A DNA stretch of 63,030 nt, counting the filler, from Reclinomonas americana ATCC 50394 (Eukaryota), in assembly GCA_048213135.1 (NCBI GenBank). It is 7 parts of 3 records of this genome, joined end to end, with 100 filler letters (N's around TTAATTAATTAA, not from the genome) between each part and the next. Parts side by side here need not be neighbours in the genome. Positions count along the whole stretch, not along the records: positions 1 to 6,795 come from PS015202.1; positions 6,896 to 16,247 come from PS015202.1; positions 16,348 to 19,668 come from PS015202.1; positions 19,769 to 35,035 come from PS015202.1; positions 35,136 to 52,786 come from PS015202.1; positions 52,887 to 59,417 come from PS015207.1; positions 59,518 to 63,030 come from PS015209.1. One strand, 5' to 3'. Positions 1 to 61,205 of this stretch are shown one piece after another. The position numbers and the translations under genes were made by a program. The first letter of the stretch is position 1. The number at the start of each line of letters is the position of its first letter. A model generated the notes under the pieces. The model did no database searches and was not told the DNA's origin. It was given only the letters and a program-made list of their open reading frames with translations.

Positions 1-1060
1 GCTGAACGCCTCTTGCACGTCTCTGCGAGGCGAGTGAGTGGAAGCAGTGTGGGGAGGAAGACAAAGAGAGAGAGGCCGAAGAGGAAAGCTGCGAGGAAGA
101 AAGACGGCAGGAAGGAGGACGGGAAGACCGAAGGTGGACAGAAGGAGTGAGAGGGAGAAAAGGGAAGAGGAAAACGAGGCATAGCCAACGAGCGACGCGC
201 GAACAGCGCAACTTGACATCGGCCTTGAGCGACAAGGTCTCGCGCAGCGTCTGCCGATCGACGCACTCCACAATCGCACTGCGCAGCTTGTCGACCTCGG
301 CCTCCCACTCCGATCGCCCCACCTTCTTCTGCAACGCAGTGGCCACCGACTGCCGCGTGGCACGCTCCGCCAGCTCGCGATCCACCGCCTGCACATCGGC
401 CTTGGCCAGCAACGCCTGCTCCACGCGAATCCAATCGGCCTTTCGCGACATGCTCTCCTCAAAGCGCGAGAATCGCTCTTCGGTGCACTCATCGACCCAT
501 CGCCGCACATCGCCGACACTCATCTTGGCCTTGAGCGCCTCACGCACCTCATCCACGCCCGCCTTTTCGTCGAGCGCGCGCGCAATCTCATCGCTGGTCT
601 GCGCCAGCTCAGTGCGCGAGGCCGCCTCGCGCAGTCGCGACTCTGTACGCGCATCGCTCTCCGCCAACGCTCGCCGCAACGCGAGCACCTCCAGTCGCGT
701 CTCCCGCAACTCTTCCCCTTGCTCGCGCACCGTCTCCACCACTGCCTTGATCGTCCATCGCACGATATCCTAACGGCGCCCAAAAAATCAATCACTCTCT
801 CTCAAGTACGTAAGAAAGACATGCACATACTTCTCAGCCTCTCTCTCACACACACTCTCTCTCTCCTTCTCTCTTTTTCTTTTTACCTGAATGTTTCGCC
901 ATGGTCCGAGTCCTTGCGTGAGGTCGTCGACTGCGATGTCCACCAGGCGACGCACTCCAAAGGAAGAGGTGCCTCCTCCTCCTGTGCCACTGCTGCTACT
1001 GCTGCTGCCCCCGCCTGTGTGCAACAACGAGGCACTCTTCTCGAAGAATGCCGACTCCAT
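1..1060 (-). CDS. Coiled-coil protein with KA-D/V-type repeats; 3' end runs off window
   Basis: ATG at 1060 (MESAFF...GPWRNIQ), CAG|GTAAAA intron, then an open helical exon DIVRWTIKAVVETVREQ...SLKADVK; donor GTTGCGC at 212 joins to ..DVQEAFS at the window edge. Confidence 0.65.
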
Positions 1061-1291
1061 TGTCGACGATGGTTTTGAACGAACGTCGCGACGTCGGCGA
1101 TCGTTTGGTGGAGGACGCGCGAACAGTACGTAAAGTTTTGGCGGGTTGTGGAGACGTTTCCTTTGCTGCGTCTGTGACTGTGAAGAGGAACACAAAGTCG
1201 GCTTCTTGCTTTGCTGCCTGCGCTGATCAGTATTCTGAAATTGCATGGCGTGACACGACTTTACACATTGCACGAGAGCTCATCGTCGGCG

Positions 1292-2518
1292 ATGGAAGGC
1301 GTGTGCGTCGATCCGCAGCTCACGCTCTACGAATCTGATGTTGACAGTCCGGGTGACTATGTGGAGTCGGATGAGGAGGAAGAGATCTGCGGAAACTTTG
1401 CTGCAGCTAGCGCTGCCACCACCGTCCGCGAGGGCGAAGACGACTTGCTTGCCGTCACCATGCCCGACTTGCCCATGCTGCGCGACGACTTGAATGCGCA
1501 GGAACGGTGGCTGTGGCACGAAGGCTTCCCGTGGCCCGAGGATGGTCCTTTCAGGTTCCAGTTCGTCAGGATCACCAGCCGCACGAAGCTGTCGCCCGCA
1601 GATGCATGTGCGTACGTACGAGAGTGAGCGTCCGTGCCCACAGTGCCCTCACCTTCGTGTTGTCGACACCCTGCAGGCTTCGCTGTGTACCTTCGGACGC
1701 TGCACACGAGCTCTCACGGCGGCGACCACCCTCAGGCCAGCCCGCTCGATTACGACGTGGCTTTTGCGGAGGAGGTGTTTGTGCGACTGGCCATGCAAGT
1801 CCTTGCCGAAGAGACCATGGCGCTGGTCCTCGAAGCCTGCAACGAGCGACTGGGTCGAGACGGCACACTCATCTTCCTCCGCATTCTCTGTGTGGATGGT
1901 GGAGTGGGAGCTTGGTGGCTGCGAGAGCAGATTTACGACGACCCGAAGCTGCGGCCCCTCGGCAACTTCGCGATGCTGGAGGTTGAACGAGAGGCCAGGC
2001 CAGAGCGCGACTTCCCCGACTCGTATGCTGCTTGTCGCGAAGAGCTGCAGCGGATTCGTACGATCTCCAGGAGACTGTGGACGCGTATCATGACTCGGGC
2101 TCTTGGAGGCTCTGCCGCACCTTCCGAGGTCGAATCGGCAAAATCGTCGCGCTCATGTACCGCAGCTGAAGTGGAGGAGGCCTTGCGTGCCGCCGCTCGC
2201 CTCGGCGGATCATGGAACGAAGAGATTCTCGGCCCCAGGCCTCGCACCTACGCGTGGGATGAAGCGACGGATCCACTGCCTGATCCACGCTTCTACAGCC
2301 ACTGCGATCTGGCCATTCTGGGGTACGCCAAGGGTCACCCTCCGTGGTGCAGGGAGCATGCATCCGTGCCGAGCTTGGTGGATGTCAACTTCCCCTGCTT
2401 GCGCCAAGGGTGTCGTGAAGTGAGTGGCGAAGTGAGTGGTGAAGTGAGGGGTGAAGTAAGTGCTGAAGTGAGGGGTGAAGAGAGTGGTGGAGTCAGTGGT
2501 GAAGTCAGCGGTGATTAA
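1292..2518 (+). CDS. Hypothetical protein, 2 exons, EVSG-repeat C-terminal tail
   Basis: Two long coding-like ORFs joined in frame by a GTGCGT...CTGCAG intron (~1608-1676). Confidence 0.6.
2417..2513 (+). repeat. 12-bp coding tandem repeat (GAAGTGAGTGGT-like x8, EVSG)
   Basis: Directly visible periodicity. Confidence 0.9.
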
Positions 2519-2578
2519 AACGTACCGCTTGGGTTGGTTCAAACAATGCTTCCGCATGTATCACAAAACACCGCAGCC

Positions 2579-3442
2579 TTACGGCGGCGATGCAGCTCGC
2601 AAAAAAGCTTGCACCGCAGGCTCACACTCACTGGGTGGGGGTGCAGAGGCGGCCCAGAAGGCAAGGCGGCTGCGGTCGTCGGGAGCAATGGCCAGCTGCG
2701 GCGGAACCTCCAGGTGGAACTCGTAAATGTCGCCGGTGCGGTCGCGGTGGAAGAGCAGACCGAGCTGGGTGGGGAGGCAGTGAGATAAGCCTTTGCACGG
2801 GATATGCGAAGAGAAGCAACACTGAGCGCAACTTGCATGTACACCAGTTCGACCGACTCTTGGTAGCACTCGATAGAAACAACTGCGCGTGCCGGCGAAG
2901 AAGTGTGAGCGAGTGAGCACATGCAGTCGAGCGGCAGCAACAACACCCGCGCACCATCCTTGAAGTCGTCGGTGATCTCCGTGTCGGTGCTCACGGCTTC
3001 GGAGGGCGGCACCAGGCCGAAGGCGTTGCGCCACCGGTAGTAGTCCTCCCAGATCTGTGTGTTCTGAGTGACTTGCCAGCACTCTGAAAAACTCAGCCCA
3101 CCACACACCAACACACCTCGGCACTCCACAGCGACGCTTTGCGGTGGAGACGACGGGTGCACTCGGCCAGAATGAGATCCGTCAGGCCGCCGGGCATCAG
3201 CTCCGGTGGAAACTCTGGTTCCGTTTCCAGGAACGACAGCAGCGAGTGACACGCATACGAGGCGTCGTGCTCAGCACTCCACGAGTACGAATCCTACACA
3301 CACGTCGAGTCAAATCACCGCGTTTTTTCCCACTCCGCGCTTCGTGCATGAAACCTTGTCGGCCTGCCCGTGCAACGTCTGCACGCAGTGCAACACTTCG
3401 TGGCACGGCACTCGAAAGGCATCCCTGTGCAGGCACATGCAA
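2579..3442 (-). CDS. Hypothetical multi-exon protein, possibly F-box-like N-terminus
   Basis: Exons join in frame: ..RCCRSWKRNQ/SLWSAE/IWEDYYRW../..ELVYMQ|GTTGCGC(2832)/LGLLFHRD..stop 2579. Start uncertain. Confidence 0.4.
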
Positions 3443-3459
3443 AGTGAGCAGCGGGAGGC

Positions 3460-4170
3460 GAGGGAAGAGGAGTCAGAGAGAAGAAAGGAGAGGAGAGGAG
3501 AAGAAAAAGAAGAGAAGAGAAGAGAAGAAGAAATGCATGCGCAGTGAGCAGCGGGAGGCGAGGGGATTCGGAGTCAGAAAACAAAAAAAGGAAGAGAAGA
3601 TGAGGGATTGAAGGAGAAAAGAGCAGAGAAAGAACAGAGAAAGAAGAGAGAAAAGAAGAGAGCAAAGAAGAGAGAAGAGAAAAGAAGAGAGAAGAGAAGA
3701 GAGAAGAGTAGAGGTGAGAGGAGAAGAGAAGAAGAAATGAAGTGAACTACCAGAAGAGAAACACGAGAAGAGAGGGAGTCTTCTCTCCACTTCTCTTCTC
3801 ATCTCTCCTGTCTTCTCCTCTTCTCTTCCACTTTTTCTTCCTTTCTTCTCTTTTCTTTTTTCCTTGTTCTTCTCACTCTTATTCTTCTATTCTCTTCTTC
3901 TCTCCTCTTCTCTTCTCTCCCACGTTTTTCACCTTTCTTCTTTTCTGTTTCATCCTCACCTCTTCTCTTCTCCTCTCCTCTCCTCTCCTCTCTTTTCTTC
4001 TCTCCTCTTCGCTCCTTCTTCTCCTCTTCTCTCCCATTTTTCACCTTCCTTCTTTCTCTTTTTTATTCTCACCTCTTCTCTCCTTCTCCTCTCTTTTTCT
4101 CTTCTCTTCCCTTCTCAGTTCTTCTCTTATCTTCATGCCTTTCTCTCTCTTTCCCCCATCTCCCTCCCCT
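3460..4170. repeat. Polypurine tract followed directly by polypyrimidine tract
   Basis: AG-rich ~3460-3778, CT-rich ~3779-4170. Confidence 0.85.
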
Positions 4171-5071
4171 TTTCCCGACTGTACTTTGCCTCGTCCACGC
4201 ACAAGAACTGTATCAAGTAGCAGCGGCGATCGCTGAGACACCGACGCTTCATCTCCTCCAGGTGCGACGGCGGCAACTTGTTCGGATCCGGGTAGACCAC
4301 TGTCGAGTTTGCACCGTCGGCTATACAACGCAGAGCATCAGCAGCGAAAGAAAGACAGCAGGTTAGAGACCTCGAGGAACAGCGCACCACAATAGGAGAC
4401 CTCGTACTGGATCATGAAGTCGACACCCGACGGCACTACATGCACGACCGGTCAGCGTACTGCCCAACGAAGGTAAGACAAGCTCGTGGGCGACTCACCC
4501 AACGGTGTCACATGGATCTTCTCCAGCCCCGCGACATCGATCCACGGACACGCTCGTCGCACCGCACGCAACGCCGCCTGCACACTCACATCGACCACAT
4601 GTCCGTAATCGAAATGCTGCGGAACATCCAAGTACACCTCCAGTCGATCGCGCAACGCCACCACTTGCCCCACTGTCAACATCGACTCTTCCCCGATCTG
4701 CAAACCGGCCATGAGAAGGACAGACTCTTGCTTGTCTCTCTCTCTTGCTTGTGTCTCTCATTCACCAGTGACAGAGTGAAACAAGTGTCGCCTCGATGAT
4801 GCAATGTGAGACTAAGTCGCGCCAGATCGTCGAGCAATCCATCGTGCATTGCGCGTCGGAAGAAGCGCACATCAAAGATGGAGTTGGAGGCACTGGCGAG
4901 GTCCCACACTGCTTCTCCAGTGTGTGTCTGAGTGGTGGTGGCCTCGGCGTGCCACCACGGGCATGCAGCGGAGAGGCAGAAGCAGTCGAGGAGGTGCAGG
5001 ACGCGCAGTTGGCGAATGATGGACACACCGCAGTCGGGGAGCAGTGAGTCGAGCCAGGCCAGGTCGTCCAT
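4133..5071 (-). CDS. Hypothetical protein with F-box-like N-terminus, 4 exons
   Basis: MDDLAWLDSLLPDCGVSIIRQL...LSAACPWW resembles the F-box pattern; three GT-AG introns restore the frame. Confidence 0.5.
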
Positions 5072-5286
5072 GGCACACGCACACACAGAGAGAAGGAGAG
5101 TGAGAAGTCCTTTCGTTGTCCTTCAGCTTTTTCGAACACACATAATGCATTTANNNNNNNNNNNNNNNNNNNNNNNNNNNNNNCCTCCTCCCCTCACAAA
5201 GAAAAGAATCAACAAACACAACAGAAATCCACTCTCATACACACTCATATTCGCCCCTTGTGTGTGTGTGTAAAGGGGACACTCAC

Positions 5287-5719
5287 CTGGAAGTCACGCA
5301 ATCCCAGCAGCACAATGTCTCCCACTTGAATCCACACCTTCTTTCGCAACTTGCCACGAATGTGACACAATCGCTTCTTCCCGTCAAAGCACTGCGCCTC
5401 AAGTCGCCCGTTGCCAAGCATACGCAACACTTGCGCGTACTCTAAGAGAGAGAGACACACACACACACAAAGAGAGAAAAGTGAGTGAGACATTTCACAC
5501 TTGCACACACTGACTTTTGTTTCTTGTCTGTTGTTCCTCACTTTAGTGTTGTGCGCATGTCTCTCTCTTAGTGTGCCTCTGTGTGTGTGTGTGCGTGTGA
5601 GGAGGTGTCCCTGAAATAGACTGACCTTGGCCTTCCTCGCGAATGATCAAGTCGCGCTTGACTTCTGAGTGCGAGGTGCGGCTCTTGCTGTTCTTGCCAG
5701 TCTTCTTCTTCTTCGGCAT
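5287..5719 (-). CDS. EIF1A: Translation initiation factor eIF1A (exons 1-2; 3' exon missing, probably in gap)
   Basis: Exon 5719-5626 MPKKKK...[11 protein letters not shown] plus exon 5441-5287 [52 protein letters not shown]. Confidence 0.95.
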
Positions 5720-5812
5720 TCTTGTCTGCTCTCTGCTGTTGCTTCGTTGATCGAATCAGTGTGCGGACAAGGTTGTCCTATGTACATTTGTTTGCCCAAC
5801 TTCGTGCCTTTG

Positions 5813-5956
5813 CTAACGACTTGATCCGGCACGAACGGGCGCTTGCTGTTGTTGCTGTTGCTGTTGCTGTTGCTGTTGTTGTTGTGCTTGTTGCATGACG
5901 TAGTCCATCAGCGCTCGTTGCTGCTCTTGTTCACTTCGCTGGGCGAGCTCTTGTGC
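5813..5956 (-). CDS. Terminal exon of an unidentified gene (poly-Q)
   Basis: Branch site and CACAG acceptor, then AQELAQRSEQEQQRALMDYVMQQ..Q(n)..stop. Confidence 0.5.
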   Translation of the reverse strand, partial: AQELAQRSEQEQQRALMDYVMQQAQQQQQQQQQQQQQQAPVRAGSSR

Positions 5957-6089
5957 CTGTGAGACGGGTGGCGTGTGAGTAAGCGGATCGATGGGGAGAT
6001 GAGGGATGGGGGATAGTACGCGTATGAGGCAACTTTGGGAGAGAAGGGAAGAGAGGGGAAGAGAAACGAGACTGGACAGGTTCAGCAAG

Positions 6090-6730
6090 CATTGGAAGCC
6101 ACGCCAACGACGAACGAGCGAGGGAAGGAGGAAGGAAGAAGCGAGAGGACAAGAGAGCAAGAGAGCATGCACCCATTTGCAGACACAGTTGTGAATCGTC
6201 TGCACCTGCCACAGAAGCCAAACAATCCGGCGGCTCAAGCACAAAATGCACAGAAAATGCGCCAGCGACGAGCGAGCAAGAGAAAGAGGAAAGGAAAGGA
6301 GAGCGATGACGAGAGCGTGCACCTACATATATGTACAGACGAGCACAGTTGCACAATCGTCTGCACTTGCAGCAGAAAGAAACCAGACAATCCGGCGGCT
6401 CAAGCTCAAAATGCACAGAAACAACGCCGACGACGAACTGGTGGGAGAATGGGAGAGGAAACGAGAGAACAGGCCAACAAGAGAGCGTGCATCTATGTAC
6501 AGACGAGCACAGTTGCACAATCGTCTGCACGTGCCACAAAGAAACCAGACAAGCCGGATCATGCTCAAAATGCACACAAACCACGCCAGCGACGAACGGG
6601 TGGGAGAATGGGAGAAGAGGAGGAAGAAGTACGCTAGAGAGTGCACCTATTTACAGACACGCGTGGTCGTGCGATCGTCCGCACTTGCCAGTCAAAAAAC
6701 CGGTCACAAGCTCAAAATGCAACAGACAAT
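6090..6730. repeat. Degenerate tandem repeat, ~147-165 bp x4
   Basis: AAAATGCA anchors at ~6243, 6408, 6567, 6714; shared CAGAC...CGTCTGCAC block. Confidence 0.85.
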
Positions 6731-6750
6731 ACACCAGAATACTCTCTCTC

Positions 6751-6795
<45 letters not shown>

Positions 6796-6945: not shown

Positions 6946-7366
6946 TTGGAGGATCGTGTGAGAGAACGCAGTCAAGACCGATCAGAGTCAACAACAGATC
7001 GAGTCATGCTCAAAGTGCACTGTGACACGCCACGCACGACACACAACGCACGCTCGATCTCTGTGCGCGAGAAGTGATGCAGCAAGAAGAGTGCACACAC
7101 AGAACAGAACATCACAAGACTGATGCAATCACGATGAGTGTGCACGTGCGTGAGCAGCTAAGTGTACATGAGAGAGAGTGTGTGTAAGTGAGTGAGTGTG
7201 TGCGAGAGAGAGAGAGTCTTGCGGTTGAAGTGCATCGTGACGGAGTACTCCGACAATCACTGCTCCACTTCACCGCGAACAAGAACACAGTCACACACAC
7301 ACACACACACACACAAAGAGAAAGCACTCTCTCTAACGCTCTCTCTCTCTCTCACTCTCACTCTCA

Positions 7367-26535: not shown

Positions 26536-29096
26536 TCACAGCTCAGCAGCCGGGGCTGCAGCTGCATCCGACGCTGCACCACTGCCTTCTGCCACACTTG
26601 CAACCATCACCACGCCCGACTGTGCGCCATCAGTCCTGGAGATGGTCACGGAGGAGGCCGCCGCAGCTGAGGCGCTGCCGGCGTCCACCGAGAGCGCCAC
26701 CATGCTCTCATCGGTCACCTGCGTCACGCCCACAACCACCACTGGCGGTTCGCCAGCGGCCACAGCCTCCGCCTCCCCCGCAGCCACGGCTGCCGCATCG
26801 TCGGAGCGCCACTCTTCCAACACAAAGGTCTCACCGTGGCGGGTCTACGACGGGACGCCCAAACATCAATGTCGGCGCGCACTCGCACGTGGGGTGACTT
26901 GCGGTGCAACACGCAACTGTGATGAAAGCGTCCTCCGCCAAGCCGTACGCTGCCGCCGCCTCGCGCACCTTGATCGGCGGCTCGTGGGTGTCCTCCAGCG
27001 AGAGATTGAAGGTGCCCCAGTGGATGCCCAGTGATCGTCGAGCACGGAGATCAATGTGCATGCGCACGGCCTCCTCCGGATCGACGTGCTGCGGCGCAAG
27101 GAAGCTATGTCACACAAAGTCTGTGAGTCGACACTATGGATGGAGCACGAGAGGGGGGCGACGCGAAACTGCCGCGGGCAATACGCTCCGATCGGAATGA
27201 GGGCCAGATCGAACGGGCCAAAGCGGTCGCCGACTGTGACAACGTCATTCAGCATACAGGGAGGCCACCACACACAAAACAAAGAAAGCGACGCTCAACT
27301 GTGCTTGAATTCGGAGCAGTAGCCAGTGTCGCCGGCAAAGTACATGCGCAGAGAGGGCCAGTCGGGCAGCTGTGGAGGGATGTTCAGCGCGGCGCTGGAA
27401 TCGCTTTGACCGCCAGTGTTTCTCGACACTGCGCGGCAGGGTGAGACACATGGTGCGAGGCGAATGCAACAAGGGTTCACGCACACGTCGGAGCGGCCAC
27501 CAGTCCGAAACCGTCAATGCCATGTGGAATACGCACGACCCAGCCTGCGCAGGGTGGGGGAAAGTGAGCTCCAAGAAGACAGATCAACGTGTTGCGTAAT
27601 ACGCACCACTCCACAGTGTCTTGTCCTTGTCGCGCTGTGAGAGACAGCATTGATGAGGNNNNNNNNNNNNNNNNNNNNNTCGTCGTCGTCGTCGTCGTCG
27701 TCGTCGGGGGGGGGGGGGGGGGGCGAGGACACCACAATCTGCGCACGTACCAGTCCGCGTCGACTCCAATGCTGCGCCGGCACGCACACAATCTCGACCG
27801 GGAAATGGCTCTCGTCAATGGTCTCGGGCACGATGATGTGACTCTCGTACCAGCCAAGCTCGATAATGCTAAGAGCAGGAGTATATCAGCAGCTGTATTC
27901 ATCACACTCTACGGAGAAAGAGACACACCGTTGCTGCAATGCAGAATCGCAGTGAGTGCGGGGCGAGCATGGGCGACGACGACAAGTCTCCAATCCTCAC
28001 CTTCTCGACTCCGCAGTCGGCAATGACTGCGCCGAGCTTCAGCGGCACAAAATACAACGGCTTGTGGTGCTCCTCGATCACGCGAATCGACTTGGTGTCC
28101 AAGTGGTCGTAGTGGTTGTGCGAGATGCACACGGCGTGTACTGGCGGCAGATCGGCAATCTCCACCGGTGGCAACACGTAACGCTTCGGACCCTGTCACC
28201 ATTCGATGAGCATAACAAGCAGCTCGATGCACCAAAGCAAGAGGAGGGGGAGGCACGCAACAAACATCTGCGACGGCGACGCACGCATGCTCCACACTGC
28301 AACGGTCTACATAAGCAACTCGAAACCGAAATCACGAAAGAAAGAGAGAGAGAGAGAGCGCACCAGGATCCGTGAGAATGCTAAAGCCAGCCATCTGCAC
28401 AAATGCGGTCGCATGCCCGATCCAGGTGCACTGTATACACAGACAGCGACACACACGTGTCATGATCTCCGCGTCATGCTCGCACGCGCGCAAACTCCGC
28501 GGCGAGTGACCGACAGACCTGCACCCCGCGAAGTGGCGGACTCTCCAGCTGCATCGAGTCGATCTCCGCCACCGAGTGATGCCTCTCAATGTGCTCCTCC
28601 GACGGGTTCCGACGAAACACAAACTGTGTGTGTGGAGAGTGAATGAGCAGATGGCGCGAGAAAAGGCAGAAAGAGAGGCACAAAGACACACCTTGGTCAT
28701 GGTGCCCAGCTGCACAACACACAGACACGCACACATATGTGAGTTGTGAGGGCACGCACGCAGTGTCGACGAGTGAGTTACGAAACGTTCTTCAAGATCT
28801 GCACATCGCGCCACTGTGTGCCACGAACAGAGAGTCAATAAACGCAACAAAAGCTCACTCTCTTTTCCACTCACACACACACACCGTTGGCCACGGGTTC
28901 ACAAAGTGCACTCCCGATGGCTTTGTGTAAGACTCGCGACCTGTGCCCAGAGTGTCAGCAACACACACAAAGACACTCACTCACACAGAGAGAACATGCC
29001 TGTGATTGGCGACCGCAGAACCTGCTCGGGATCAAAGCCCACCAGTTGCTCAATGGCAAAACCAGCACTCTGACCTGAACCAGTCGCGCTCTGCAT
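26536..29096 (-). CDS. NAPEPLD: N-acyl-phosphatidylethanolamine phospholipase D (metallo-beta-lactamase fold)
   Basis: FVNPW, TWIGHAT, LTDPVWSMRASP, ISHNHYDHLD, PAQHWSRR, YFAGDTGY, GPFDLALIPIGAY, QHVDPEEAV, GIHWGTF. Confidence 0.93.
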
Positions 29097-34929: not shown

Positions 34930-35174
34930 CGACTCAAACAACGAATGGGTGAGTGACAACACGCGCCACTCTGTGTTGTCTCTCACTCACGCGCGCGCTC
35001 TCTTTTGTCTCTCCTGCTCTGTATGTGTGTGTCTCNNNNNNNNNNNNNNNNNNNNNNNNNNNNNNNNNNNNNNNNNNNNTTAATTAATTAANNNNNNNNN
35101 NNNNNNNNNNNNNNNNNNNNNNNNNNNNNNNNNNNTCTCTCTGTTGGTGCTCATGTGTGTGTGAATGCACGCAG

Positions 35175-38100
35175 AGTTTGTGGATCGCGCGGCTGAAGTG
35201 AGTGGCGATGAGGAGGAAGATGACGAGGAGGACGAGGAGGAGGAGGAGATGACGGCCAAGGATCGTGAGTTTATCGGTGAGTGCAAACCTGCATTGTGCA
35301 TCTCTCTCTCCCTGCGCAAGCGCGTGTGTGTGTGTTGTCTTTTGCGCGCGCGCGTGGCATGTCGACTCTGACATCGACGACAACTCATGCACGCACACAC
35401 GCAGCTGGTGCCTCGTCGTCGTCGGGAGGAGGTGCAGGTGCGATGCAACGAAAGCGACGACGTGCGCTCTCTGACGATGAAGAAGGCAACGATGACGAGG
35501 AAGGTGCGCAGCCGTCTGCAAAGGATGACGAGGAAGAGGAGGACGAGGAGGAGGATGAAGAGGATGAGGATGAGGAAGAGGAGGAGGAGGACGACGAGGA
35601 CGGGGAGCCGCAGAAGAAGCGTCGACGCATCGTCTCGGGTCGCAAGCTGAAGCAGCGCAAGGAGGAGTTTATGGCCGAGTTGCAGAATCTGCAGGATGTT
35701 GCGTGTGCAGCAGCAAAGCTCTTCCTTCTCCTCTCCCGCTGTGCACTCACTGACACGAGCGCGTGCATGTGCAGGATGCGGTGCGATCGTCGAGTGACGA
35801 GGCGGGTGGCTACTCGGACGAGGAGAAGTCCAAGGCCTCGTCGCAGCGCAAGAAGAAGAGGAGAAGAAAGGAGCATGCGGAGGCGGGCGGTGGTGCAGGT
35901 GGTGCCCGTGCCGGCAGTGACGATGAGGAGGCGGTGGATGCGCTGGTTGCGAAGAAGAAAAAGAAGAAGAAGAAGCTGTCGGTCGTGGACGAGCTGGAGG
36001 AGATGGGCGAGGAAGACGACGACGTGATGCGGTTACCGGAGGATGTGTACGTTGTCCTCCTATGGCTCCTTTCTTTGAGTGCCGAAACGGGGGAACGCTG
36101 ATGCGAATTGTCGTCGTGCAGGGGTGGTGGCGACAAGCGGCTGACGTCGGTGTTTGGAGATGCGGATCTGCTGGCCGACATGTTACCGCCCGACGAAGGC
36201 ATGGAGGAGGGTCAGTATGGCGACGCGGAGGCTGGATTCGATGTGTACAGCCGCCTCCTGCAGCGCTTTGAGCCCGCCGAGCTCGCCGAGCGTCATCTCA
36301 CCGACGAAGATGCCGTCATTCTCCACCAGGACATTCCCGAGGAGCTGCAGGTGAGCCAGCAAGTGTCTTTTTCTCTTGTGCCGACCTCACACACACGCAC
36401 ACACACTCAATTGTCGTGTGCTCGGTTCCAGGTGCGTCTGCGTCGCCGGCCGCCACCCTCACAAGCGGAGCTGGAGGAGGAGACACGGTGGATCTACCGC
36501 ACGTATTTCGAGACGGACGCCTCGACACGCGCCTACGAGGGATTCGGCATTGACGATCCGCGGTACGGCATGTCGTACGCCGAACTCAAGATCAAGGCCA
36601 TTCGTGCGTGCCTGGTGGGCATGCTGTGCGAGCACCTGGAGCCGGGTTTCTTGTGGATGTACCGCCGCGATGACTTTCCAGACGGCACACTGGTTCGCCG
36701 GGTTCACGCACGCGTCGTCATCCACTGCTGGGTGCTGTTTTTGCTCACTGCGATCTGTGCTTTGTTGGCAGACCGCGGTCGATGTGTGGCGTCTGCTGGA
36801 TTATGATGAAATCTGGGTGCGACAGGCCAGGAAGCTGGCCTCGTTGCGTTCGGTGGTGGAAGCCTACAAGGCCGACGAGGCGCGTGCAGTGGACACGGAC
36901 GAGCAGAAGGCGTTCTTGGAAGCGTTTGAGCGACTGGTGCTGCGAGCCGTGGAGGAGGGTGCGAAGGAGGCCGAGGTCGAAGACATGTTTTCGTACTGGC
37001 AAATCATGACCACTGTGGGCGAGGCCAAGTCGCTGGTCCGGCGTGACGAGTACCATCGATTGGTTCGCGTCGGTTTCAACGAGTACATTGCCAAGTTGCG
37101 CTTGAACGTGCACGAGTACCTCGACACCATTATGAATGCCGGTGTGCCCGAGTCCATTGAGGTGCGTTGTTGTGCGCGAGACAGTGTTGGCTTCTTGTCT
37201 CTCTGACTGTGTGTCGTGATTGCGCACCGTAGCCCTACCACTTGGATCCGGTGGAGTTTGTGTCGCAAGAGTGCGAGCCACTGCTGTTCTCCCTGGAGAC
37301 GTTGACAACGGAGGATGCGGTGCTGGCCGGCATTCGCAAGGTGGTGGCCACTCGCATTGCGCACGAGCCGGAGTTGCGACGCCGCATGCGTGATGCGTTG
37401 CGCGACTCGGCCGTGGTGTCCACCCAGCCGACGGAGAAGGGCGACAAGACGATTGACGTGTTCCATCCGGACGCCAATGTCAAGCGCATTGTCAACAAGC
37501 CGGTGTACAGATTCCTGCGTGATCAGGACGACGTGCACTTCTTGCACATGGTGGTGGCGGAGAAGCGTGGACACATTGAGATTGACATTCGAGACGAGGA
37601 GCCGGAGAAGACGATGCAGAGGGTGCGCAGCGTGCATGTGCGCGGTTGCTGTCGCGCTGTATGTTTTGATGTTGACAAATGTGTCGCTCGCAGGTACTGC
37701 AACCCGAGTGCTTCCTCATTGACAGCCACTCTGCACTCGCCACGGCATGGAACGAGCAGCGCCGTCTCATTCTGCAGGATGTGCAGGAGATGTTGTATGA
37801 GGCGTGCATTCCGGAGATTCGCTCCGAGTTGCTGAAGGTCGCCGAGGACAATGCCATGGATTTGTGTGCGCGCAAGCTGCGCAATCTGGTGTACCATCGA
37901 GGATTCGTGCCCCCCGGCTACAATCCCAACGACGCGTCGGGTCTGTTCTCATGCACGGGTCCTGTGTCGCCGGTGCAGGCACTGATTTGTTTACTTGGAT
38001 GATGCAGATCCATGGTTCCTGGTGGCCTGCGTGTACCAAGATGCCAACAACCCCATTCACTTTGTCAAGGTCACCATGGAAGGCGATGTTGCGTTTGACG

Positions 38101-41100
38101 CGTGGTGTTTTCTTTCCGTCATCGTTGTTGTCTGTGTGTACCGACCTGGCGATTGTTGTTGTTCAGTATGTGGATTCGCTGGTGTGGGGCCTGCGCGACA
38201 TGGCGGGCGGCATGCGCTCCGTCGAGTACACGCGGGACATGGAGAGCCAGCATCACACCCTCGCCATGTGGCTGCAGGAGGGCAATGTGCGCGGCCTGGT
38301 GGTCGGTGTGCGTGACCAGACGGTACGACGGCTGCTCGGCGAGCTGCGCAAGCTGATTGACGAGTCCGCCGACCTCAAAGACCACGTGACGCTGATCGAC
38401 ATGGACGAGGATATTGCAAAGTTGTACGAAGCCGGCGAACTGGCCACAAATGAGTATCCCGACTGGACCGACTCGAATGGTCTGGCCAAGAGGTTTGTTG
38501 ATGGGGACAGGGGTGGGCGATTTGGAATTGTGAGCGCGCACGTGCTAATGGTGATCGCAGACGGTGCTTGTCGCTCGCACGACGAGTGCTGGAGCCGCTG
38601 TGGGAGTTCTCCTGCCTGTTCAACACCAACAAGGACATTCTCAAAGTGCACATGCACACGTTCCAGTCGGCGGTTGCGTCTCTGCATGCTTCCTCAATTC
38701 TTGAAAGACCCGACTCCTCAACTCTCTTCTGTGCAGTTGCCGCAAGACCGTCTCATGATGCGTCTGCGAGAGGAGATGCGCATTGTGACTGCCACGGTTG
38801 GTGTGCGTGTGAACATTGTGATTCATCGACCGCACGCGTGGCCAGTGCTGCAATTCGTCGCCGGCTTGGGACCCCGCAAGGCGCCCGATCTGGTGGTGCA
38901 ATTGCAGAAGCTGGAGGTGCGTCTCTCAGAGTGACTCACTTGCGTGTGCCTGCCACTGCTCACATTCACGCACAACAGGGAGGCTGCTTGCAGTCGCGAC
39001 ACCAGCTGCTGCAGCTGGTGGGTGAGGTAGTTTTCAACAATGCGGCTGGTTTCCTGTTTGTGACGCTGGACGACGAGGAGGGCAGTGGTGGATGTTGCGG
39101 CACGCATCATTGTCCTTTGCTGCGCGCTCTCGCTCATCTTGTCTCTTCTCTCTCTCTCTCTTCTTCTCTCGCACGCGACAGCGCTGGTGGAGCGGAGTCG
39201 CATCCATCCCGAATTCTACCCGCTGGCCATCAAGATCGCCGTCGATGCTCTCGACCAGGAGGTCTCACCGGACCCGATTTTGCGCATGCAAGAGTACTAT
39301 CAGCGTCACATGACGTTTGCCGAGTTGCTCGACTCGGATGGCCTCGATCCGCTGCTCAACTACGTGGACGACCTGAAGCGACGCAATCTGAGTGCGGAGA
39401 CACTCTTCCCCGCTGGTTTGTGTTGGAGGGAGGGGAAGGGAGGTGTTGCGAGATGAGCATGCGCTTGACGAATGCTCTGTGAATGCAGCTCAAATCGAGA
39501 AGCTGGGCATGTGTGCGAGCGAGTACGTCGAACGGAGTGTGCCGTTCAGCAAGGAGCGCACTGTCACTGCGTTGGCGGGTTCGTGTGTGGCCCCCGTCTT
39601 GATCATTTCAGTTTTCTTCATCGTTCTCACTTGTTCGTACAGCCGATCGACGGAAAAATGTTGGCAATGGCAACAATGACGACGACCTCGGAGATGACTT
39701 GGACGATGCGGACGACGACGATGATGAGATTGGCGACGACGAGTTGGCGGCCCTCGGCGGCAATGGCGATGACGCGTGCGTGCTTTTTCCTTGAGAGTAT
39801 TCTCCTCGTGCATTCCTCATTCTTTCTGCTCAACGCGACAGTCAACTTGCCGAGGCTCGTGCGGCTCGTCAGCGAGAGCGTGAGGAGAGGCGGCGGCAGC
39901 GTGAGGCGCGACGTCAAAAGTTGCGCAACCACATCGCCATGCAGTGGTTGCGTCAGGCATGCCACACGTGTTGATTGACCGACGATCTTCTTGCAGACGA
40001 CTGCTGGACAAGACTCCGTTGCAGGTGGTGATTATGCGCGGATCGATCATCAGTGCGGCGTTCTTGTGCCAGCGCGAAATCGATCATGCAGGGGAGGACG
40101 AACGACCGCCGTTTGCGGAGCCGACCATGGAGGAGCGATTCCGCATGCTGTTTGGTGACATTCCGGGCGTGACTCTGATGGAGGGCATGCCGGTGTTGGC
40201 CGAAGTCGTCCGACGTTGCGTTGCTCTCATTCTCTCTCACGCACCTTGTCGTATTTACTCAATCTGTGTGCGCGCGCAGCGGCACAAACGGCCTCCGACT
40301 ACAGCGACAACAAGGCCAGCAAAATCATCTGCCGACTCACCGACAACAGCTGTCCTGCCATCTACTTTGCCAACGACCCCACACCCGCCGAGTGCACACG
40401 TGGTTCGATTTTGGATCTGTGTGTGGAGCGTATCGAGTTGCCGCAACCGTCTGTTGCGTGCCGCATTCGTCTTCTCCGCATCTGTTGTTGTGTATTCGTG
40501 CTGGTTGACATTCGTGTCCAGGAGCCATCCATGATGTTGGATATGGCGCGCGACGCGCCATGGTGGGATCGCATGCAAGTCAAGCTGCAGACGAGAGACA
40601 CTACGCGGGAGCGTGATGCGTCGACCCGCAACTTTGACGAGTACCTGAGATTCACGGCACCGCCAGAGTATCGCGCCAGCTCCTCGACCAGTTGCGTATC
40701 GACTGGAGAAAAGCTGATTTGCTGTGCTGTGTGGCTGCTGATTGTGTTCCTGCAGCCAAGCGGTCGTCGCGCACCCTGGTCAGTCGCCCCATCAATCATC
40801 CGTTCTTCCGCAACTGGACGTGGAGTGAGGCCAAGGAGCACTTGAAGGTGGACCATCCATTGTTGGGGCATTTTTCGGGTTTGTCGACTGACATGGTGAC
40901 GTGATCACGCAGGATGCACCGATTGGCGACCTGATCATCAGACCAAAGCCCGGCAACCATGCGCGCCTCTGCATCAGTTTCAAATTCTTCTCTGGTCTCG
41001 TCAGCAACATCGAGGTGGAGGAGAAGGACAAGCCCAATCCATTAGCACTCGGTCAGCGTTTGCTGCTGGACAAGCACGAGTTTGAGGATCTCGACGAAGT

Positions 41101-42195
41101 TGCGTGATGGCGCACCAGTAGTGTGCGCCTCGCCGCGATGACTCATCTCTCTTGGTTAGGTGTGCGAGCGTTACATTGCGCGGCTGATGACGACCGCACG
41201 CAAAATGGCCGAGCACCGCAAGTTTACCGATGCCACCGAGGAGAAGATTGAGGAGATGCTGCAGGCGGAGCTCCGTGCGAACCCGCGTGCCATCCCCTAT
41301 CGCATTGCCGTGCATCGTGCCACCTACCGCTCGATGCATTTTGCCATTTACTACATGACACGGCACTCGTCGCTGATGCACAAGAGCGTCAAGCCGGCAC
41401 CGGAGGGTTTCTACTTCCGCAAGTCGCTGTTCAAGAAGCCGGAGGAGGTGATCAATGCCTTCAAGAAGGACCTGGAGGAGGAATTCCGCAAGGCACGCTC
41501 CAGTCGCAGTCAGCCGTCGCCTGCTGGCGGCGGAAGCTCGCACGGCATGCCGATGCTGTCACCGCTGCAGTCGTACACCTCACCGCTGGTCAACGAATCG
41601 CCTCGGTCGGGGTCGAGTGGCTCCGCCATCTCCACGCCACCCATGCACTCCAGTACGTCGTCGTCGTCGTCTTCGATCAGCAAGCTTCTTGCGCATTGCG
41701 ATACTCACCTCGTGCGTCTGTGTGTTTGCAGACTCGAGCATGGATCGCTGGATGTCGGCAGCGCGCGGAATCGCACCTCCGATACCATCGCCGAGTATGC
41801 ACTCTGGTGTGTCGACTCCTTCGCCGTTCGGTCGCCCCAGTGGCGGCGGCGGCGCACCGCCACCACCACCACCACCACCGCCGCCATCTGGTGGCAGCTC
41901 GTTCTCGGCACCGCGACCACCACCGTCGTCGTCGGGACGTGCGGTCGGCAGCTCACCAGCCCGCGATTCGTACGGAGGTGGGGGAGCTGGGGGGTACTAC
42001 AACCAACCACCACCACCTCCACCACCACCGTCGTACCCGCAGCAGCCGTCTCGATACGACAACAGTCCGTCGATGGCCACTCCACCACTTTATCAATCGC
42101 CCAGGTCGGGAAGGCACGGTGCTCCGCCACCACCGCCTCCACCACCACCGCCGCCGCCTCCAGAGCGTGCTGACGACGATATGGAAATGGACTGA
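35175..42195 (+). CDS. SPT6: Transcription elongation factor Spt6 (5' end at scaffold edge)
   Basis: Acidic N-terminus, FEPAELAERHLTDED..DIPEELQ, LQFVAGLGPRKA (HhH), VFNNAAGFL, SRIHPEFY, tandem SH2 (INHPFF..FEDLDEVCERYI); about 20 introns. Confidence 0.95.
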
Positions 42196-56033: not shown

Positions 56034-59000
56034 GTCGTGTGTGTGTGTGTGTGTGTGTGGGGGGTGTGGCGTGGGGGGGGGGGGGTTATGACTGTGCCCT
56101 TGAGCACTCTTGCATCCTCTCTTCAGCTTTTCTTCTTTGTCCACGTGGTTTTTTCCTCTTCCTCCTCATATCCTCGCTCTTCGCTGTGCTTGACTCTGTT
56201 TCTCTCTCCCTCCCTCCTCCCCTCGCTCACCCTTCCCGTCCTGCAGGTTCCAGGCCGGCGGCAGCGCCGTGTACCGCCTGCAGACAGTACCACTCATCGT
56301 CACCGCCGCCTCGTCGACTCCAATCATCTCCTTTGCCGCTCCGCCCGTGCTCAAGTACGGCAGCGCCAACTCGATTGTGATTGGTTCCTCTGCCGAGAAC
56401 CTCACCGACTGCACGAGCTTCAAGCTGGTGCCGGCGGGCGCCGACTGCGCCACTCTGTCGGACTACTCGACACTGACGGGCAGTGTCGGCGCATCGTTCG
56501 CGAGCGCCGGTGCCGATGCGTGCCAGTTCATCACTGGCTGCCGCCTGTACCGCGCCACCATCACCCCGAACGGCTCGACCGGCGGTGGTGCCTTCAAGTT
56601 GTGTGTGGCGGCCAATAATGGACCGTACGTGCCGGCGGAGGAGTCGTTCACCTCTGGGTTTATGACTGCCGGCGGTCTCAGTCCGAGCAGCCCCTTGCCC
56701 TCGTCGACGCCTCTGGCCGCCAAGCCGAGCATGTCAACACTGGCGGTGACAACGACCACCATCCAGTTCACATTTGCGCGCGAGTTCTTCCGCCGTCCGC
56801 GCGTGTTGCTCGGCTTCACCAGTGTCGGCAGCCAGGTCACTGGAGGCATTTCCACCCAGGCGAACGAGCCTACTGATGGCACCTTTGCATTCTGTGCGGA
56901 GCCGGTGGTGACTGTGGCGAGGCTGTCATCTCGCTGCTACGGCGTGTCGACTAACGGTCAGCCGGGACCGACCATCACACTGAGTTGCGTTCACTGAAGC
57001 GCGGAGAGAGATAGCGAGAGGAGAAGTGTGACTCACGTGCTGCTCGTGCAGGCTACCTGGCGTACTATGTGCACCAGACCAATGCGCTGTCGATGGATGG
57101 TCAGCGCACGCTGACGAGCAAGGCGTGGTTGACGGATGCGGTGAACAAGAGCAGCTCATCTGTTGCGTCTCTGTTTATCTCATGTATGTCCGCCACGTCA
57201 CCGAATGTTGACTTGCCCGGCGATGCGCAGTTGGTGAGCGTGTCGTCCCTGTACCAGTTTGCGTCGGTGCCGTCCATCCCCGTGGCCGTGATGGGCGTGC
57301 TGTCGATCCGCCAGTCGGCTGTCGGCAGCGATGGTCGCATTCGCGGCGACAACTTTTCGCTGTCGAACAGCTCGGCCTCGCGCTCCAGCTTCGTCCTCAA
57401 GGGCACGGTGAACGGCGACTCGCGCATCGAGGCAGTGTCGGCGCGCTTTGCTGTGGCACCGACTCGCCCCGACAGCACCAACAACAGCGGATTCGTCATG
57501 CTGTCGGGTGGTGCGTGCTTTGCATACAGACAGGCTTTCTTTATGGCGATCGGCGGACAGGTTCTTTGGTCCGCCGCTGCCGTCATATCTTTCTCTCTTC
57601 CTCTCTTCTCTCAGGCGTATGTGTGAGAGAGTATTGCAGTGCGAGTGAGATAAGATAAGAAGCACAATCGATTCTCGATCGATCCTCGCAGTCTTTCTCA
57701 GTCACGATCGGTGAGCACTCACCACGCCTCTCTCTCGCACACACGCTCACCTCTCTCTCGCTGCATGTTTGTGCGTGTGTGTGTGTGTGTGTGTGTGTCT
57801 TTCATATATCATCCCTCTCCACGCCCGCCCCCCCCCCTCCCCCTCCTCTCTCTCTCTCTCTGCATTTGAGAAATTTTGTCTAAAATATTTTGTCCAGAAA
57901 CGACGCACCCCAGCAGCGCATCGACGCAGACCGCCAGTCTGGTGACGCCGTCGACCCCCAATGGCCTGCTGCGTGCCACCATCAGTGTGCAGCTGTTCTT
58001 GCGTGGGTGGAAATCGTCGGCGGTCATTGTGCAGAACCGCGTCGATCAGCAGTCGCTGCAGTTCACCACCAAGCGCCTCGGCAACGAGGACTACGTGACG
58101 GCAATTTCGTTCAACGCCAGCGGCGCGGACACGTCAGACGTTGTGTACGTGACGTGGGTGGCGATTGGTCGTGCGGCGCAAGGCGCGCCGATCACGTGCC
58201 CAGCCGGCTACAGTGGCTCCAACTGCGGCGTGTGCACGCTGCCCGACGGCACCACGACGTGCTCACTGAACCGACGTGCGGTGCTCAGCTGCGCCTACGG
58301 CACCACTCAGATTGTTGCCGAGTGTGCCGAGGGTCGCGAGTGCTCGGAATCGTACGGCACGGCGCAGTGCGAGTGTTCGACTGATGGCACCACTTGCTCG
58401 AGTGGGGGTGACTGCTGCAGTGGAAATTGTGATGGCAATAATCAATGCGCGCCGGCCTGCGTTGGTGACCTGCCTCTGGGCGAGCGCTGTCGTGGAAACG
58501 ATACGTGCTGCTCTGGCCATTGTGTCTACGGGGTTTGTGCTTCAAGCTGCGGCAGTGATGGACAGAGCTGCTTCCGCGGCGAAGAATGCTGCTCCGGAAA
58601 TTGTGACAACACGGGCATCTGTGCACAACCATGCACTCTGGGTGCCATTGGCGATTCGTGCTCGTCGGCGACGGAATGCTGTGATGGCTTTTGCGTGTAT
58701 TCAGTCTGTGCATCCAGCTGCGGCGCAGACGGCGGAAGTTGCAATGGCGACTCCGAATGTTGTCCGGGTAGCTCGTGCCAGTATGGCACGTGCACGGCAG
58801 CATGCACGCTGGGTGCCATTGGCGACAGTTGTGAAAACGTTACTTCTTGCTGCAGTGGGTTTTGCGTGTATTCAGTCTGTGCATCCAGCTGCGGCGCTGA
58901 CGGCGATCGCTGCAATGCTAACGATGAGTGCTGCTCATCCGTTTGCAACAACAGTCTCACGTGTGAGGCGGCATGTACGGCCGAGGGTGGCAGTTGCAGC

Positions 59001-59066
59001 TCGTCCACAGAATGCTGTGGTGGAGACTGCGTTTACCAAACCTGCACTGCTACGCCGCCGGTATGA
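54251..59066 (+). CDS. Secreted protein: beta-rich modules, lectin-like segment and tandem six-Cys (C-C-CC-C-C) repeats
   Basis: Signal peptide exon; exons join in frame; C-terminal repeats such as CGADGGSCNGDSECCPGSSCQYGTC. Confidence 0.75.
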
Positions 59067-59351
59067 ACCCTTGGAGCTGATGGCGACTACTGTACCAATG
59101 CGACACATTGTTGCGGCGGGGTTTTGTGTGTATTCGGGGGTGCAGCTCGAGCTGCGGTGCCGTCGGCGACTACTGTCTTGCGAGCCTCGAATGTTGTTCT
59201 GGGGATTTGCAGCGGTTACACGTGTGCTGCTGCCTCTCTTTCCTGAGCAACTTTGCATTGTTCTCTTTTTCTTCATGCTGTGTACGACGTGCCTTCAATG
59301 TTGCAGCAGCTCTGCTTGCATCTCCACTCTTCCCTCTCTCTCTCTCACACA

Positions 59352-59395
<44 letters not shown>

Positions 59396-59644
59396 GTACG
59401 TACGTACGTACGTACGTNNNNNNNNNNNNNNNNNNNNNNNNNNNNNNNNNNNNNNNNNNNNTTAATTAATTAANNNNNNNNNNNNNNNNNNNNNNNNNNN
59501 NNNNNNNNNNNNNNNNNGAGAGAGAGAGAGAGAGCAATCAAGAAAAAGAGAGATTGAGAGTGGCAAGACAGCTGAGAGACGGAATGAAAGGCAGATAGAC
59601 GACGCGAGAGAGTGGGAGAGAGACACTGCAAACGCGAAACGCAC

Positions 59645-60879
59645 CACGGCACAATGGCTGTTGCATTCCGCGAAATGTCGGCACGAAAAACGGGTGAGTT
59701 GGCGGAATACAGGATGACGACAACGAGTGGGAATCACGCACCACCGACCACACCGACCGGCTCGTGGCGGGTGAAGGTAGCCAGCTGCAGAGAGAGAGAG
59801 AAGGAGAGTGAGCAAATAAAAAAGAAGAAAGTGGTGGCGAACACGGTGCAGACGAAACGTTGCCACCTGACAAACACGACAGTCAGCAACAACGACAAGC
59901 AAACAAGGGTGAGAGAATCAAAATGCAACACACCGGCTGGGATCACCTTGCCGCAGTTCTTGCCTGCACAGCGAGAGAGAAGAGTGAGGAACTACACTTG
60001 TCTCGGAACAATTCACAGCGGGAAACAGCAAACAACAGCACCAGCCCAGCCAGCGCTGCACACACACAATGCACAGTCGGCAGCAGTCGCAAACAGGTGA
60101 AAACAGACAATGTGAGAGGGACAAGTGAAAAGAGACGTGAGAAAGAGAGATGCAAAGGCGCAACTAGTAGCGGAAGTGCTTAGCGGCGCCAGCCATGTCG
60201 ACATCGCGCGCTTGCTTCACCGGCTGCATCAGCAGCACGTGATTGCATCAGCACACGAAAGAACAGTCAACCGAAAAATCACTCTGCCACAAGAAGAACA
60301 CCTTTCCGTTGTCCATGCTCTCGAGGACCGCCAGGTTATCGGCGTTCTCCTCAATGAGCTCGGCGAGGCGGTTAAGCAGGCGGTAACGCTCGTCGCCTAC
60401 ATAACAGAAGAGAGTGTAAGATGACGTAAATGTGTGGGGGAGAGAGAGAGAGAGAAAAAGGCGTGTACCAGTGGACTTGCGCCAGGTCTTGAAGGCCTCA
60501 GTGGCAGCGGCCACGGCCTTGTCGATCTTTACAGAGACAAGACAAGTGAGAAAGAGAATAATTTCTCCGATGATGACAATCATCATTATGAAAGAAGAGT
60601 GTATGAGACGCAACATCAGCGGCATCACCCTCGGCGACCTGTGTGTGTGTCACAGAGAGCAGGATGAGTGACAAGAGCAAAAGAAAAGGGGCGAAATGTC
60701 GCGCTGCAAACAAACAGACACGCGCGTTGCAAAGAAGGATGCACAGATTCTCTTTGTTTGTCGTGTGTGTCACGTAACTTCCACAATGACTTCCTCAGTG
60801 ACGGGGTTGATGACGGGGAAGGTCTTGCCGGAGACAGCCGGGACGAACTCGTTGTTGATGAAGAGCTGAGAGAGACACA

Positions 60880-60910
<31 letters not shown>

Positions 60911-61205
60911 GAGAGAGAAGGAGGGGAGGAGGAGGGAGAGAGAGGGAGAGGGAGAGAGAGTGTGTGCGAGTTCGGAGAATCACCGGAGTGAGATGCGAGA
61001 AGAGTGTGAGAAGGTGACAGGAAGAGTGTGTGTGTGTGTGCGTGTGTGCGTGTATGTGTGTGTGTGTGTTCTGAGAGGAGAGAGAGAGGCACAGATCTCT
61101 CTCTCTCTCTCTCTCTGTGTGCGTGTGTACGTGTGTGTGTGCGAAATGATATTGTTTGTAAGACGCAACGAGTGGCGGGGGGAGACGGACGCTGGAGCTG
61201 GCCAT
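59645..61205 (-). CDS. ALDH: Aldehyde dehydrogenase (ALDH1/2-like), N-terminal 11 exons
   Basis: LFINNEFV..SGKTFPVINP, VAEGDAADIDKAV, LESMDNGKP, FRYYAGWA, TRHEPVGVVGAIVPW. Confidence 0.95.

Follow-up and report, generated by a model that had tools for sequence, protein, structure and literature searches.

What happens to splice-site recognition when the commonest 5′ splice site of an organism seems to be one base longer than expected? This question is raised by a 63,030-base stretch of DNA from Reclinomonas americana ATCC 50394 (NCBI GenBank assembly GCA_048213135.1), hereafter the window, which consists of seven stretches joined by N spacers, has a GC content of about 55 to 60%, and carries genes that are densely interrupted by introns. 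An earlier inspection without database searches, hereafter the sequence-only reading, had claimed that many introns here begin with GTTGCGY, that is, with a GTGCGT donor bearing an extra T at +3, and had suggested that U1 small nuclear RNA (snRNA) pairs with such donors in a shifted or bulged register, pointing to an altered U1/U6 register, a variant snRNA, or modified spliceosomal proteins as possible causes. Our follow-up analysis confirms that GTTGCGY is a genuine and frequent donor, and the bases around it are best explained by U1 pairing that is displaced by one position.

The motif is overrepresented in the window. GTTGCG occurs 86 times on the two strands, and GTTGCGT occurs 39 times compared to 11.5 to 13.1 expected under Markov models of order 1 to 3, an excess of about threefold. 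The one-letter variants GTAGCGT, GTCGCGT, and GTGGCGT are found at 1, 13, and 21 sites (both strands), respectively, and the hexamer GTAGCG is found at 11. All 30 coordinates listed in the sequence-only reading carry GTTGCGY on the strand given. Within predicted genes, GTTGCGT lies 28 times on the sense strand and never on the antisense strand (P = 7.5e-9); the control hexamers GTCGCG, GTGGCG, and GTGAGT are strand-unbiased inside predicted genes.

We predicted introns with a dynamic-programming gene parser whose inputs were codon usage, GT..AG boundaries, intron length, and a model of the acceptor and branch site. The parser was blind to donor positions from +3 onward. Its acceptor/branch model was learned from a first pass, which was itself noisy, and its codon table was self-trained on the window (GC content at third codon positions, 0.75). 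The self-training was unstable, and the table was retained once 5 of its 17 open reading frames (ORFs) turned out to be among the nine ORFs supported by Pfam, for which one match (RhoGAP) fell slightly under the curated cutoff. A refinement step then picked among in-frame alternative GTs using donor hexamer frequency; it did not fully converge, leaving nine introns oscillating.

The donor-blind parser picked GTTGCGY exactly as a donor at 22 of the 64 sites in the window, and 20 of the 39 GTTGCGT sites were used as donors. Control hexamers were rarely chosen: GTCGCG at 2 of 94 sites, GTGGTG at 3 of 152, and GTGGCG, GTGCGC, and GTAGCG at none of 106, 95, and 11 sites, respectively. Where a GTTGCGY site lay near a predicted intron start, its offset was 0 modulo 3 in 27 of 30 cases. 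Of the 64 sites, 44 lie in predicted genes in the sense orientation and 26 to 29 are supported by the parser, making the earlier figure of about 40 introns a fair upper estimate. The 30 listed sites comprise 18 exact predicted donors, 3 more that are in frame (29812, 21095, and 39920), and 9 with no predicted intron. The donors had been placed on all seven stretches; parser-supported ones occur on six, and the seventh (positions 1 to 6795) offers the motif and open frames.

For comparison among introns, we distinguished 22 good introns with GTTGCG donors (class B) from 28 good introns with normal-register GTNNGT donors (class A). Judged from reading frame and homology, GTTGCGY is the 5′ end of ordinary short (58 to 109 nucleotides [nt]) GT-AG spliceosomal introns that are cut directly before the G. 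These introns have the hallmarks of the U2 type: they start with GT and finish with AG, their removal restores the frame, and a CTCAC, CTCAT, or CTGAC branch motif lies no more than 45 nt from the acceptor. The acceptor reads GCAG in 14 of the 22 class B introns and in 23 of the 28 class A introns. More broadly, the acceptor consensus extends to GCAG, with G at -4 in 21 of 32 training-set introns and in 65 of 89 introns rated good. Five GTTGCGT junctions are free of gaps when compared with homologues or Pfam profiles, and they lie in two genes:

35165..42195, plus strand: Spt6 gene with about 22 credible introns (parser model, Pfam).
35698, 38088, 38673, 39920 or 39947, 40215, 40453, 40691, and 41099, plus strand: GTTGCGY donors of Spt6.
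20861..22277, minus strand: gene for an organelle/bacterial-type ribosomal protein uS5, with a GTTGCGT donor at 21095 and an intron of 73 nt (Ribosomal_S5 N-terminal domain match).

The Spt6 exons match the Pfam families Tex_central, HHH_7, and SH2_2. When the spliced model was aligned with 23 full-length homologues, the junctions at 38088, 38673, 40215, and 41099 fell in conserved gap-free blocks. At 41099, the SH2_2 profile matches over positions 48 to 108 and then over positions 111 to 210 from residue 3 of the downstream exon. In uS5, the S5_C profile continues across the junction at 21095: its position 29 falls on the penultimate residue of the upstream exon, and its position 31 falls on the residue that opens the downstream exon. 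Homology thus confirmed two junctions that had been proposed earlier, FEDLDE/VCERYI in Spt6 and AAICG/VLGI in uS5 (the slash marks the cut). At 38088, the GT-AG cut yields Tyr at a mostly hydrophobic position, where ten Spt6 homologues carry L, V, or M (nine) or K (one). Moving both the cut and the acceptor downstream by one base would leave the frame unchanged, but we rejected this possibility because it would give Asp at 38088 and would require a TT..GN intron.

About 8 of the 22 credible Spt6 introns begin with GTTGCGY. The other Spt6 donors are varied, and alignment confirmed GTGGAC at 40848 and GTGTCT at 36363. Here the refinement step mis-set at least one donor: its choice of 36714 produces an insertion in the alignment, and the parser's original GTTCGCC at 36693 fits better. 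GTTCGC at 36693 is probably a real Spt6 donor. The GTTGCGY sites at 39920 and 39947 (plus strand; the second reads GTTGCGT) are 27 nt apart, in frame, and served by one acceptor in a region that is not conserved; they may be tandem alternative donors. A search with the Spt6 SH2 exon returned 116 relatives, of which the best scoring had 35% identity and none exceeded 38% among full-length matches, indicating that no close relative is present among the sequences searched. The nearest named Spt6 relatives, at about 30 to 35% identity, come from Naegleria, lycophytes, and a marine transcriptome.

The class also differs in size from what had been supposed. Among the 146 introns of the parser, the donor hexamers were GTTGCG (23), GTGCGT (11), GTTTGT (7), and GTGAGT (4); after refinement, with 136 introns, the counts were 29, 10, 9, and 4, respectively. 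GTTGCG is therefore the plurality donor of the window, accounting for 16 to 21% of predicted introns. The sequence-only reading had taken GTGCGT as the usual donor and GTTGCGY as a major second class; the class is indeed large, but it is the largest single one rather than the second, and GTGCGT donors are rarer (10 to 11 versus 23 to 29).

Class B donors differ from class A donors in the bases that flank the cut. The last exon base (-1) is A in 13, T in 6, and G in none of the 22 class B introns, compared to G in 20 and A in none of the 28 class A introns (Fisher's exact test, P = 1.3e-7 for G and 1.4e-6 for A); the background before sense-strand GTT is 21% A and 16% G. Position +3 must be T, as forms with GTA, GTC, or GTG before GCG are practically never chosen, and GCG itself is near-invariant. 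Among GTT-NN-GT heptamers, only those with GC (20 of 39 sites) and TC (3 of 12) at NN are used. In the window, no donor use was seen for GTTGAGT (0 of 2 sites) or GTTTTGT, and GTAAGT was used at none of its 7 sites. The second extra-T heptamer, GTTTCGT, begins introns at 26116 (plus strand) and at 46038 and 48012 (minus strand); it may correspond, shifted by one base, to GTTCGT donors, of which 39579 is an example. The last donor base also behaves differently: GTGCGC was never chosen and GTGCGT was chosen exactly at 11 of 94 sites, while C at +7 (GTTGCGC) occurs in 5 of the 22 class B introns, which implies that T is essential at normal-register +6 and that C is tolerated at the equivalent +7.

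In other respects the two classes are alike. Both have a median length of 68 nt, the same branch motifs (CTCAC, CTCAT, and CTGAC), the GCAG acceptor, and the same phase; the shared length, branch motifs, and acceptor indicate that one type of spliceosome serves both. The U12-type donor motif is RTATCCTT, and we rejected a U12-type identity for these introns, which have GTTGCGY donors and the branch motifs of other introns rather than RTATCCTT and TCCTTRAY. A family derived from introners or repeats was likewise rejected. In all-against-all alignments, intron interiors showed no extra similarity within class B, within class A, or between the two (mean score, -0.16, and maximum, 0.16, for class B; -0.27 and 0.14 for class A). 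Finally, we rejected two routes of origin from G/GTGCGT: a G-to-T change at +1 predicts G at -1 in about 43% of cases, and insertion of a T predicts it in about 71%, compared to 0 of 22 observed.

How might such a donor be recognized? The one-base offset from the GTGCGT donor noted earlier holds good, since GTTGCGT and G/GTGCGT have the same seven-base footprint and differ at the second base alone. We infer that GTTGCGY donors are recognized by U1 in a register shifted by +1 and that the cut is set later, and we assign this explanation a probability of roughly 0.6. In this mechanism, U1 snRNA would pair one base out of register on GUUGCGU. The +1 G would take the place of the exonic -1 G opposite C9 of U1, the +2 U would be the single mismatch, the +3 U would stand in for the +2 U opposite A7, and GCGU (+4 to +7) would fill the slots of +3 to +6. 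The exonic -1 base would lie opposite U10. The active site formed by U6, U5, and Prp8 would later fix cleavage at the only GU present; U1-independent definition of the cleavage site is well established.

The shifted register makes two predictions about sequence context. Because the -1 base would face U10, A should be preferred over G at -1, and because the +3 U would face A7, U should be obligatory there. Both features are present in class B, with A favored at -1 and T required at +3, and together they favor the shifted register over a bulge. We also calculated pairing energies, using for every standard-U1 value the 5′ end AUACUUACCUG as printed in PMC4856993. Our script returned the published -6.5 kcal/mol for a human shifted control, ACA/GUCAAGUAUA (PMC4856993, Table 2). 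For the class B consensus it gave -2.5 kcal/mol in the shifted, +4.8 in the canonical, and +3.6 in the bulged register, although the organism's own U1 may differ. In the model, shifted pairing is thus more stable than canonical pairing. Of the two registers that had been proposed, shifted pairing fits the -1 A, the +3 T, and the energies, while bulged pairing is disfavored.

Several observations are hard to square with shifted pairing by a standard U1. The duplex would be weak, at -2.5 kcal/mol compared to -8.9 for GUGCGU and -12.2 for GUGAGU, even though no other donor is used as often or as specifically as GTTGCGT, half of whose copies are in use. A standard shifted U1 should favor GUUGAGU (-6.6 kcal/mol), neither of whose two sites is used. 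At -1, T is common (6 of 22), a base with which U10 would not pair. The absence of G there is a moderate depletion against a background of 16%, and pairing by itself does not call for it, since G.U is allowed. Furthermore, all junctions are based on reading frames and homology, and the gene models come from a crude parser trained on 63 kb, with many of its 146 introns wrong and an incompletely converged refinement. Errors of the parser, however, cannot produce the observed GTTGCGY pattern.

The alternative that survives best is that U1 itself has changed. With GC at positions 5 and 6 of its 5′ end (ACGCAC for ACUUAC), both G/GUGCGU and the shifted A/GUUGCGU would be strong; in another version, a second U1 variant would pair with GUUGCGU in the normal register and serve class B alone. 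The weakness of standard pairing and the absence of GTTGAGT make a changed 5′ end plausible. The near-invariant GCG and the unused GTAAGT and GTTGAGT are not predicted by a standard U1. For an ACGCAC 5′ end, which is a hypothetical construct, we calculated energies of -16.5 kcal/mol for GUGCGU, -10.1 for shifted cca/GUUGCGU, and -4.4 for GUUGAGU, a ranking that agrees with the one observed. Changes at U1 positions 5 and 6 have precedent in Entamoeba (ACAAAC) and Mastigamoeba (ACGUAC) (10.1101/2022.06.08.495308), and Irimia and Roy raised the idea of an altered U1 for the GTGCGTG donors of Ostreococcus (PMC2483917). However, the GTTTGT (7 to 9) and GTGAGT (4) donors that are also used would pair no better with ACGCAC than with standard U1, and an Rfam scan of the window detected no U1 gene; no family reached its gathering threshold, including any snRNA gene. 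Neither the standard nor the altered U1 model accounts for T at -1 (6 of 22) or for the total lack of G. On balance, we consider an altered U1 a serious candidate whose odds are clearly below even; it would modify the shifted-register explanation, not exclude it. We also put forward, tentatively and with clearly more doubt than belief, that this lineage may have made off-register recognition the norm, such that a changed U1 or a second variant makes W/GUUGCGU the strongest and commonest donor, while normal-register G/GUNNGU donors coexist with it and use the same spliceosome.

A bulged register is improbable. Under this explanation, +1G and +2U pair normally, GCGU pairs as it does in GUGCGU, and the additional U, at +3 or +2, forms an unpaired loop. 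The motif does read like a bulge, as GT plus T plus GCGT, and one-nucleotide bulges at +2/+3 and at +3 have been validated in human donors (PMC4856993). Yet a bulge keeps the pair between -1G and C9, and G at -1 is found in 0 of 22 donors here compared to 20 of 28 normal donors. Moreover, a looped-out base could be any base, but T alone is used, and the calculated energy of the bulge (+3.6 kcal/mol) is less favorable than that of shifted pairing (-2.5).

We consider it very unlikely that the class is a historical residue, left by a burst of intron gain in which an element with a terminus reading GTTGCGT was inserted at A^G sites, so that motif and context would reflect ancestry rather than recognition. 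The exon context A/.../G resembles a shifted proto-splice site, with G after the acceptor in 11 of 22 class B introns versus 7 of 28 class A introns, but this difference is not significant (P = 0.083), and the interiors of class B introns are no more alike than those of other intron pairs. The 28-to-0 strand bias and the use of half of all copies instead point to present-day selection on GTTGCGT. Least credible is an artefact, in the form of a chance motif or of mis-set boundaries with the true cut at a nearby GT or one base off, which could draw on the 9 of 30 listed sites that lack a parser intron and on the indistinguishable pair 39920/39947 but is contradicted by the enrichment, frame, strand, and homology tests.

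The following genes and sites carry the donor or its motif in addition to Spt6 and uS5:

16621..19630, plus strand: predicted gene with GTTGCGT donors at 17028, 17270, and 18600 and GTTTGT donors at 18142 and 18372, all exact donor-blind calls.
19819..20411, plus strand: RhoGAP gene with a GTTGCGC donor at 20063 and a 59-nt intron, an exact parser call.
27682..28288, minus strand: gene of the metallo-beta-lactamase fold (NAPE-PLD-like) with a GTTGCGT donor at 28261, an exact parser call; Lactamase_B_2 matches the downstream exon.
59734..60640, minus strand: aldehyde dehydrogenase (ALDH) gene with a GTTGCGC donor at 60164, an exact parser call, and a GTTGCGT donor at 60614.
10624, 11751, 24844, 25776, 29455, 29812, 39094, 43925, 55046, and 56984, plus strand: further parser-supported GTTGCG donors.
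26917, 45741, 48642, and 52674, minus strand: further parser-supported GTTGCG donors.
16117, 24530, 44561, 44752, and 55455, plus strand: listed GTTGCGY sites with no parser intron, which carry the motif and were inspected by eye.
212, 2832, 60614, and 61169, minus strand: listed GTTGCGY sites with no parser intron, which carry the motif and were inspected by eye.

Three of the parser-supported donors (24844, 39094, and 45741) are of the GTTGCGG type; the first two stem solely from the hexamer-frequency refinement, and the third had already been called by the donor-blind parser. In the RhoGAP gene, the profile matches over positions 1 to 74 upstream of the junction and 91 to 147 downstream, with about seven profile positions missing, and the junction lies in a variable loop. 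Most of the nine parser-negative sites show, by eye, an open upstream frame, a plausible branch, and an AG. The sequence downstream of 16117 is interrupted by an N gap, and that downstream of 55455 and of 61169 by microsatellites. The exon at 16075-16116 (plus strand), which we take to be kinesin-motor-like, ends in VRVRPFNEREINMG and is followed by GTTGCGT at 16117; an N spacer at 16248 truncates both intron and gene.

The sequence-only reading had also proposed junctions in the NAPE-PLD-like and ALDH genes. Those at 28261 and 60164 agree with the parser's frames. The one at 60614 is in frame and has a CTCAC branch and an AAG acceptor but is absent from the parser calls. The ALDH gene is split into unusually small exons, of which that at 60272-60394 matches the Aldedh profile; two homologue searches with ALDH exon ORFs returned no matches. 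Its intron at 60527-60614 (minus strand) apparently ends in AAG rather than YAG (..CTCTGTAAAG/ATCGAC), which is unusual, as GCAG dominates elsewhere. Between the 60164 GTTGCGC intron and the next intron lies an apparent micro-exon of 14 nt (60042-60055, minus strand) that codes for AGWA.

Other features of the window were recorded in passing. In the second DHHC gene, a predicted 91-nt intron (34705-34795, minus strand) starts with GTATCCTCC, which resembles a U12-type donor, and has ACACTGAC about 22 nt before its CAG; the latter is not a clear U12 branch site. A long Cys-rich ORF at 57870-59063 (plus strand) matches Pfam Conotoxin_I2 (E = 2e-7) with no single stretch passing; its product is probably not a toxin but an extracellular domain that is repetitive and Cys rich. 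Repeats of (GA)n and (CA)n are plentiful, and the commonest 7-mer in the window is GAGAGAG/CTCTCTC (364 copies). With the Rfam scan relaxed to an E value of ≤1, the window gave low-complexity matches only, at 3654-3872, 7180-7420, 22044-22156, and 61071-61117, each under the gathering score. The first and last of these are (GA)n-type stretches that gave spurious subthreshold matches to microRNA and small nucleolar RNA families on both strands.

Taken together, the evidence for the donor class is stronger than first stated, and the shifted-register idea is supported, if indirectly, by sequence evidence. In studied organisms, the choice of 5′ splice site is usually viewed as resting mainly on in-register pairing to a near-invariant U1 5′ end, with shifted and bulged registers regarded as rare exceptions. 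If shifted recognition is true here, U1 register and cleavage position would be separable genome-wide, in the largest donor class and with an exon signature of its own. The window organism would then be the first whose introns include a major class defined by shifted U1 pairing. It would supply abundant natural substrates with which to examine how U1 hands over to U6 and U5 and how the cut site is uncoupled from the U1 register, and it would extend the short list of cases in which intron signals have coevolved with snRNAs by one of a new kind. There is also a practical consequence: a gene finder that has learned GTNNGT donors will annotate a large part of the introns of this organism wrongly.

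A GTTGCG donor class was not described in anything returned by our literature searches, which targeted the motif or altered donors and covered subscription journals thinly. The known systems that resemble this class do so in part. The Mamiellophyceae (Ostreococcus and Micromonas) have GTGCGT donors, G at -1, and a CTGAC-type branch (PMC2483917, PMC3879977), as does the normal-register form here. In contrast, the available portions of those reports mention no GTTGCGT form, and the genomes they describe are intron-poor or contain introner repeats. With Spt6 SH2 exon homologues at no more than 38% identity among the sequences searched, the window organism is not a close relative of any of these.

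The Archamoebae offer a second parallel, in that an atypical donor is lineage-wide and a changed U1 is the obvious candidate cause (10.1101/2022.06.08.495308). There, the Entamoeba U1 ACAAAC stands opposite GUUUGU and the Mastigamoeba U1 ACGUAC opposite GUACGU. Unlike the present case, however, the register in those organisms is normal and the altered U1 was found, whereas the main donor of the window has an additional base and the Rfam scan of the window detected no U1.

The closest mechanistic comparisons are human. The bulge registers at +2/+3 and +3 described by Roca et al. (PMC4856993) likewise separate GU by one additional nucleotide from the segment paired to U1 positions 3 to 6, and 68 and 51 such sites, respectively, are predicted (PMC4856993, Table 3). 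Our donors differ from them in exon context and in their specificity for T. Human +1 shifted-register sites (Roca and Krainer; PMC4856993) share with GTTGCGY a U1 pairing displaced by one base, a mismatch at +2, and a cut at GU. They differ in having AAGU downstream in place of GCGU, and the context of A and no G at -1 is particular to the donors here. The scale is different as well: in humans, all validated noncanonical registers together account for 3,119 of 201,541 donors (1.5%; PMC4856993), whereas the GTTGCG class makes up 16 to 21% of predicted introns in the window and about 8 of 22 in Spt6.

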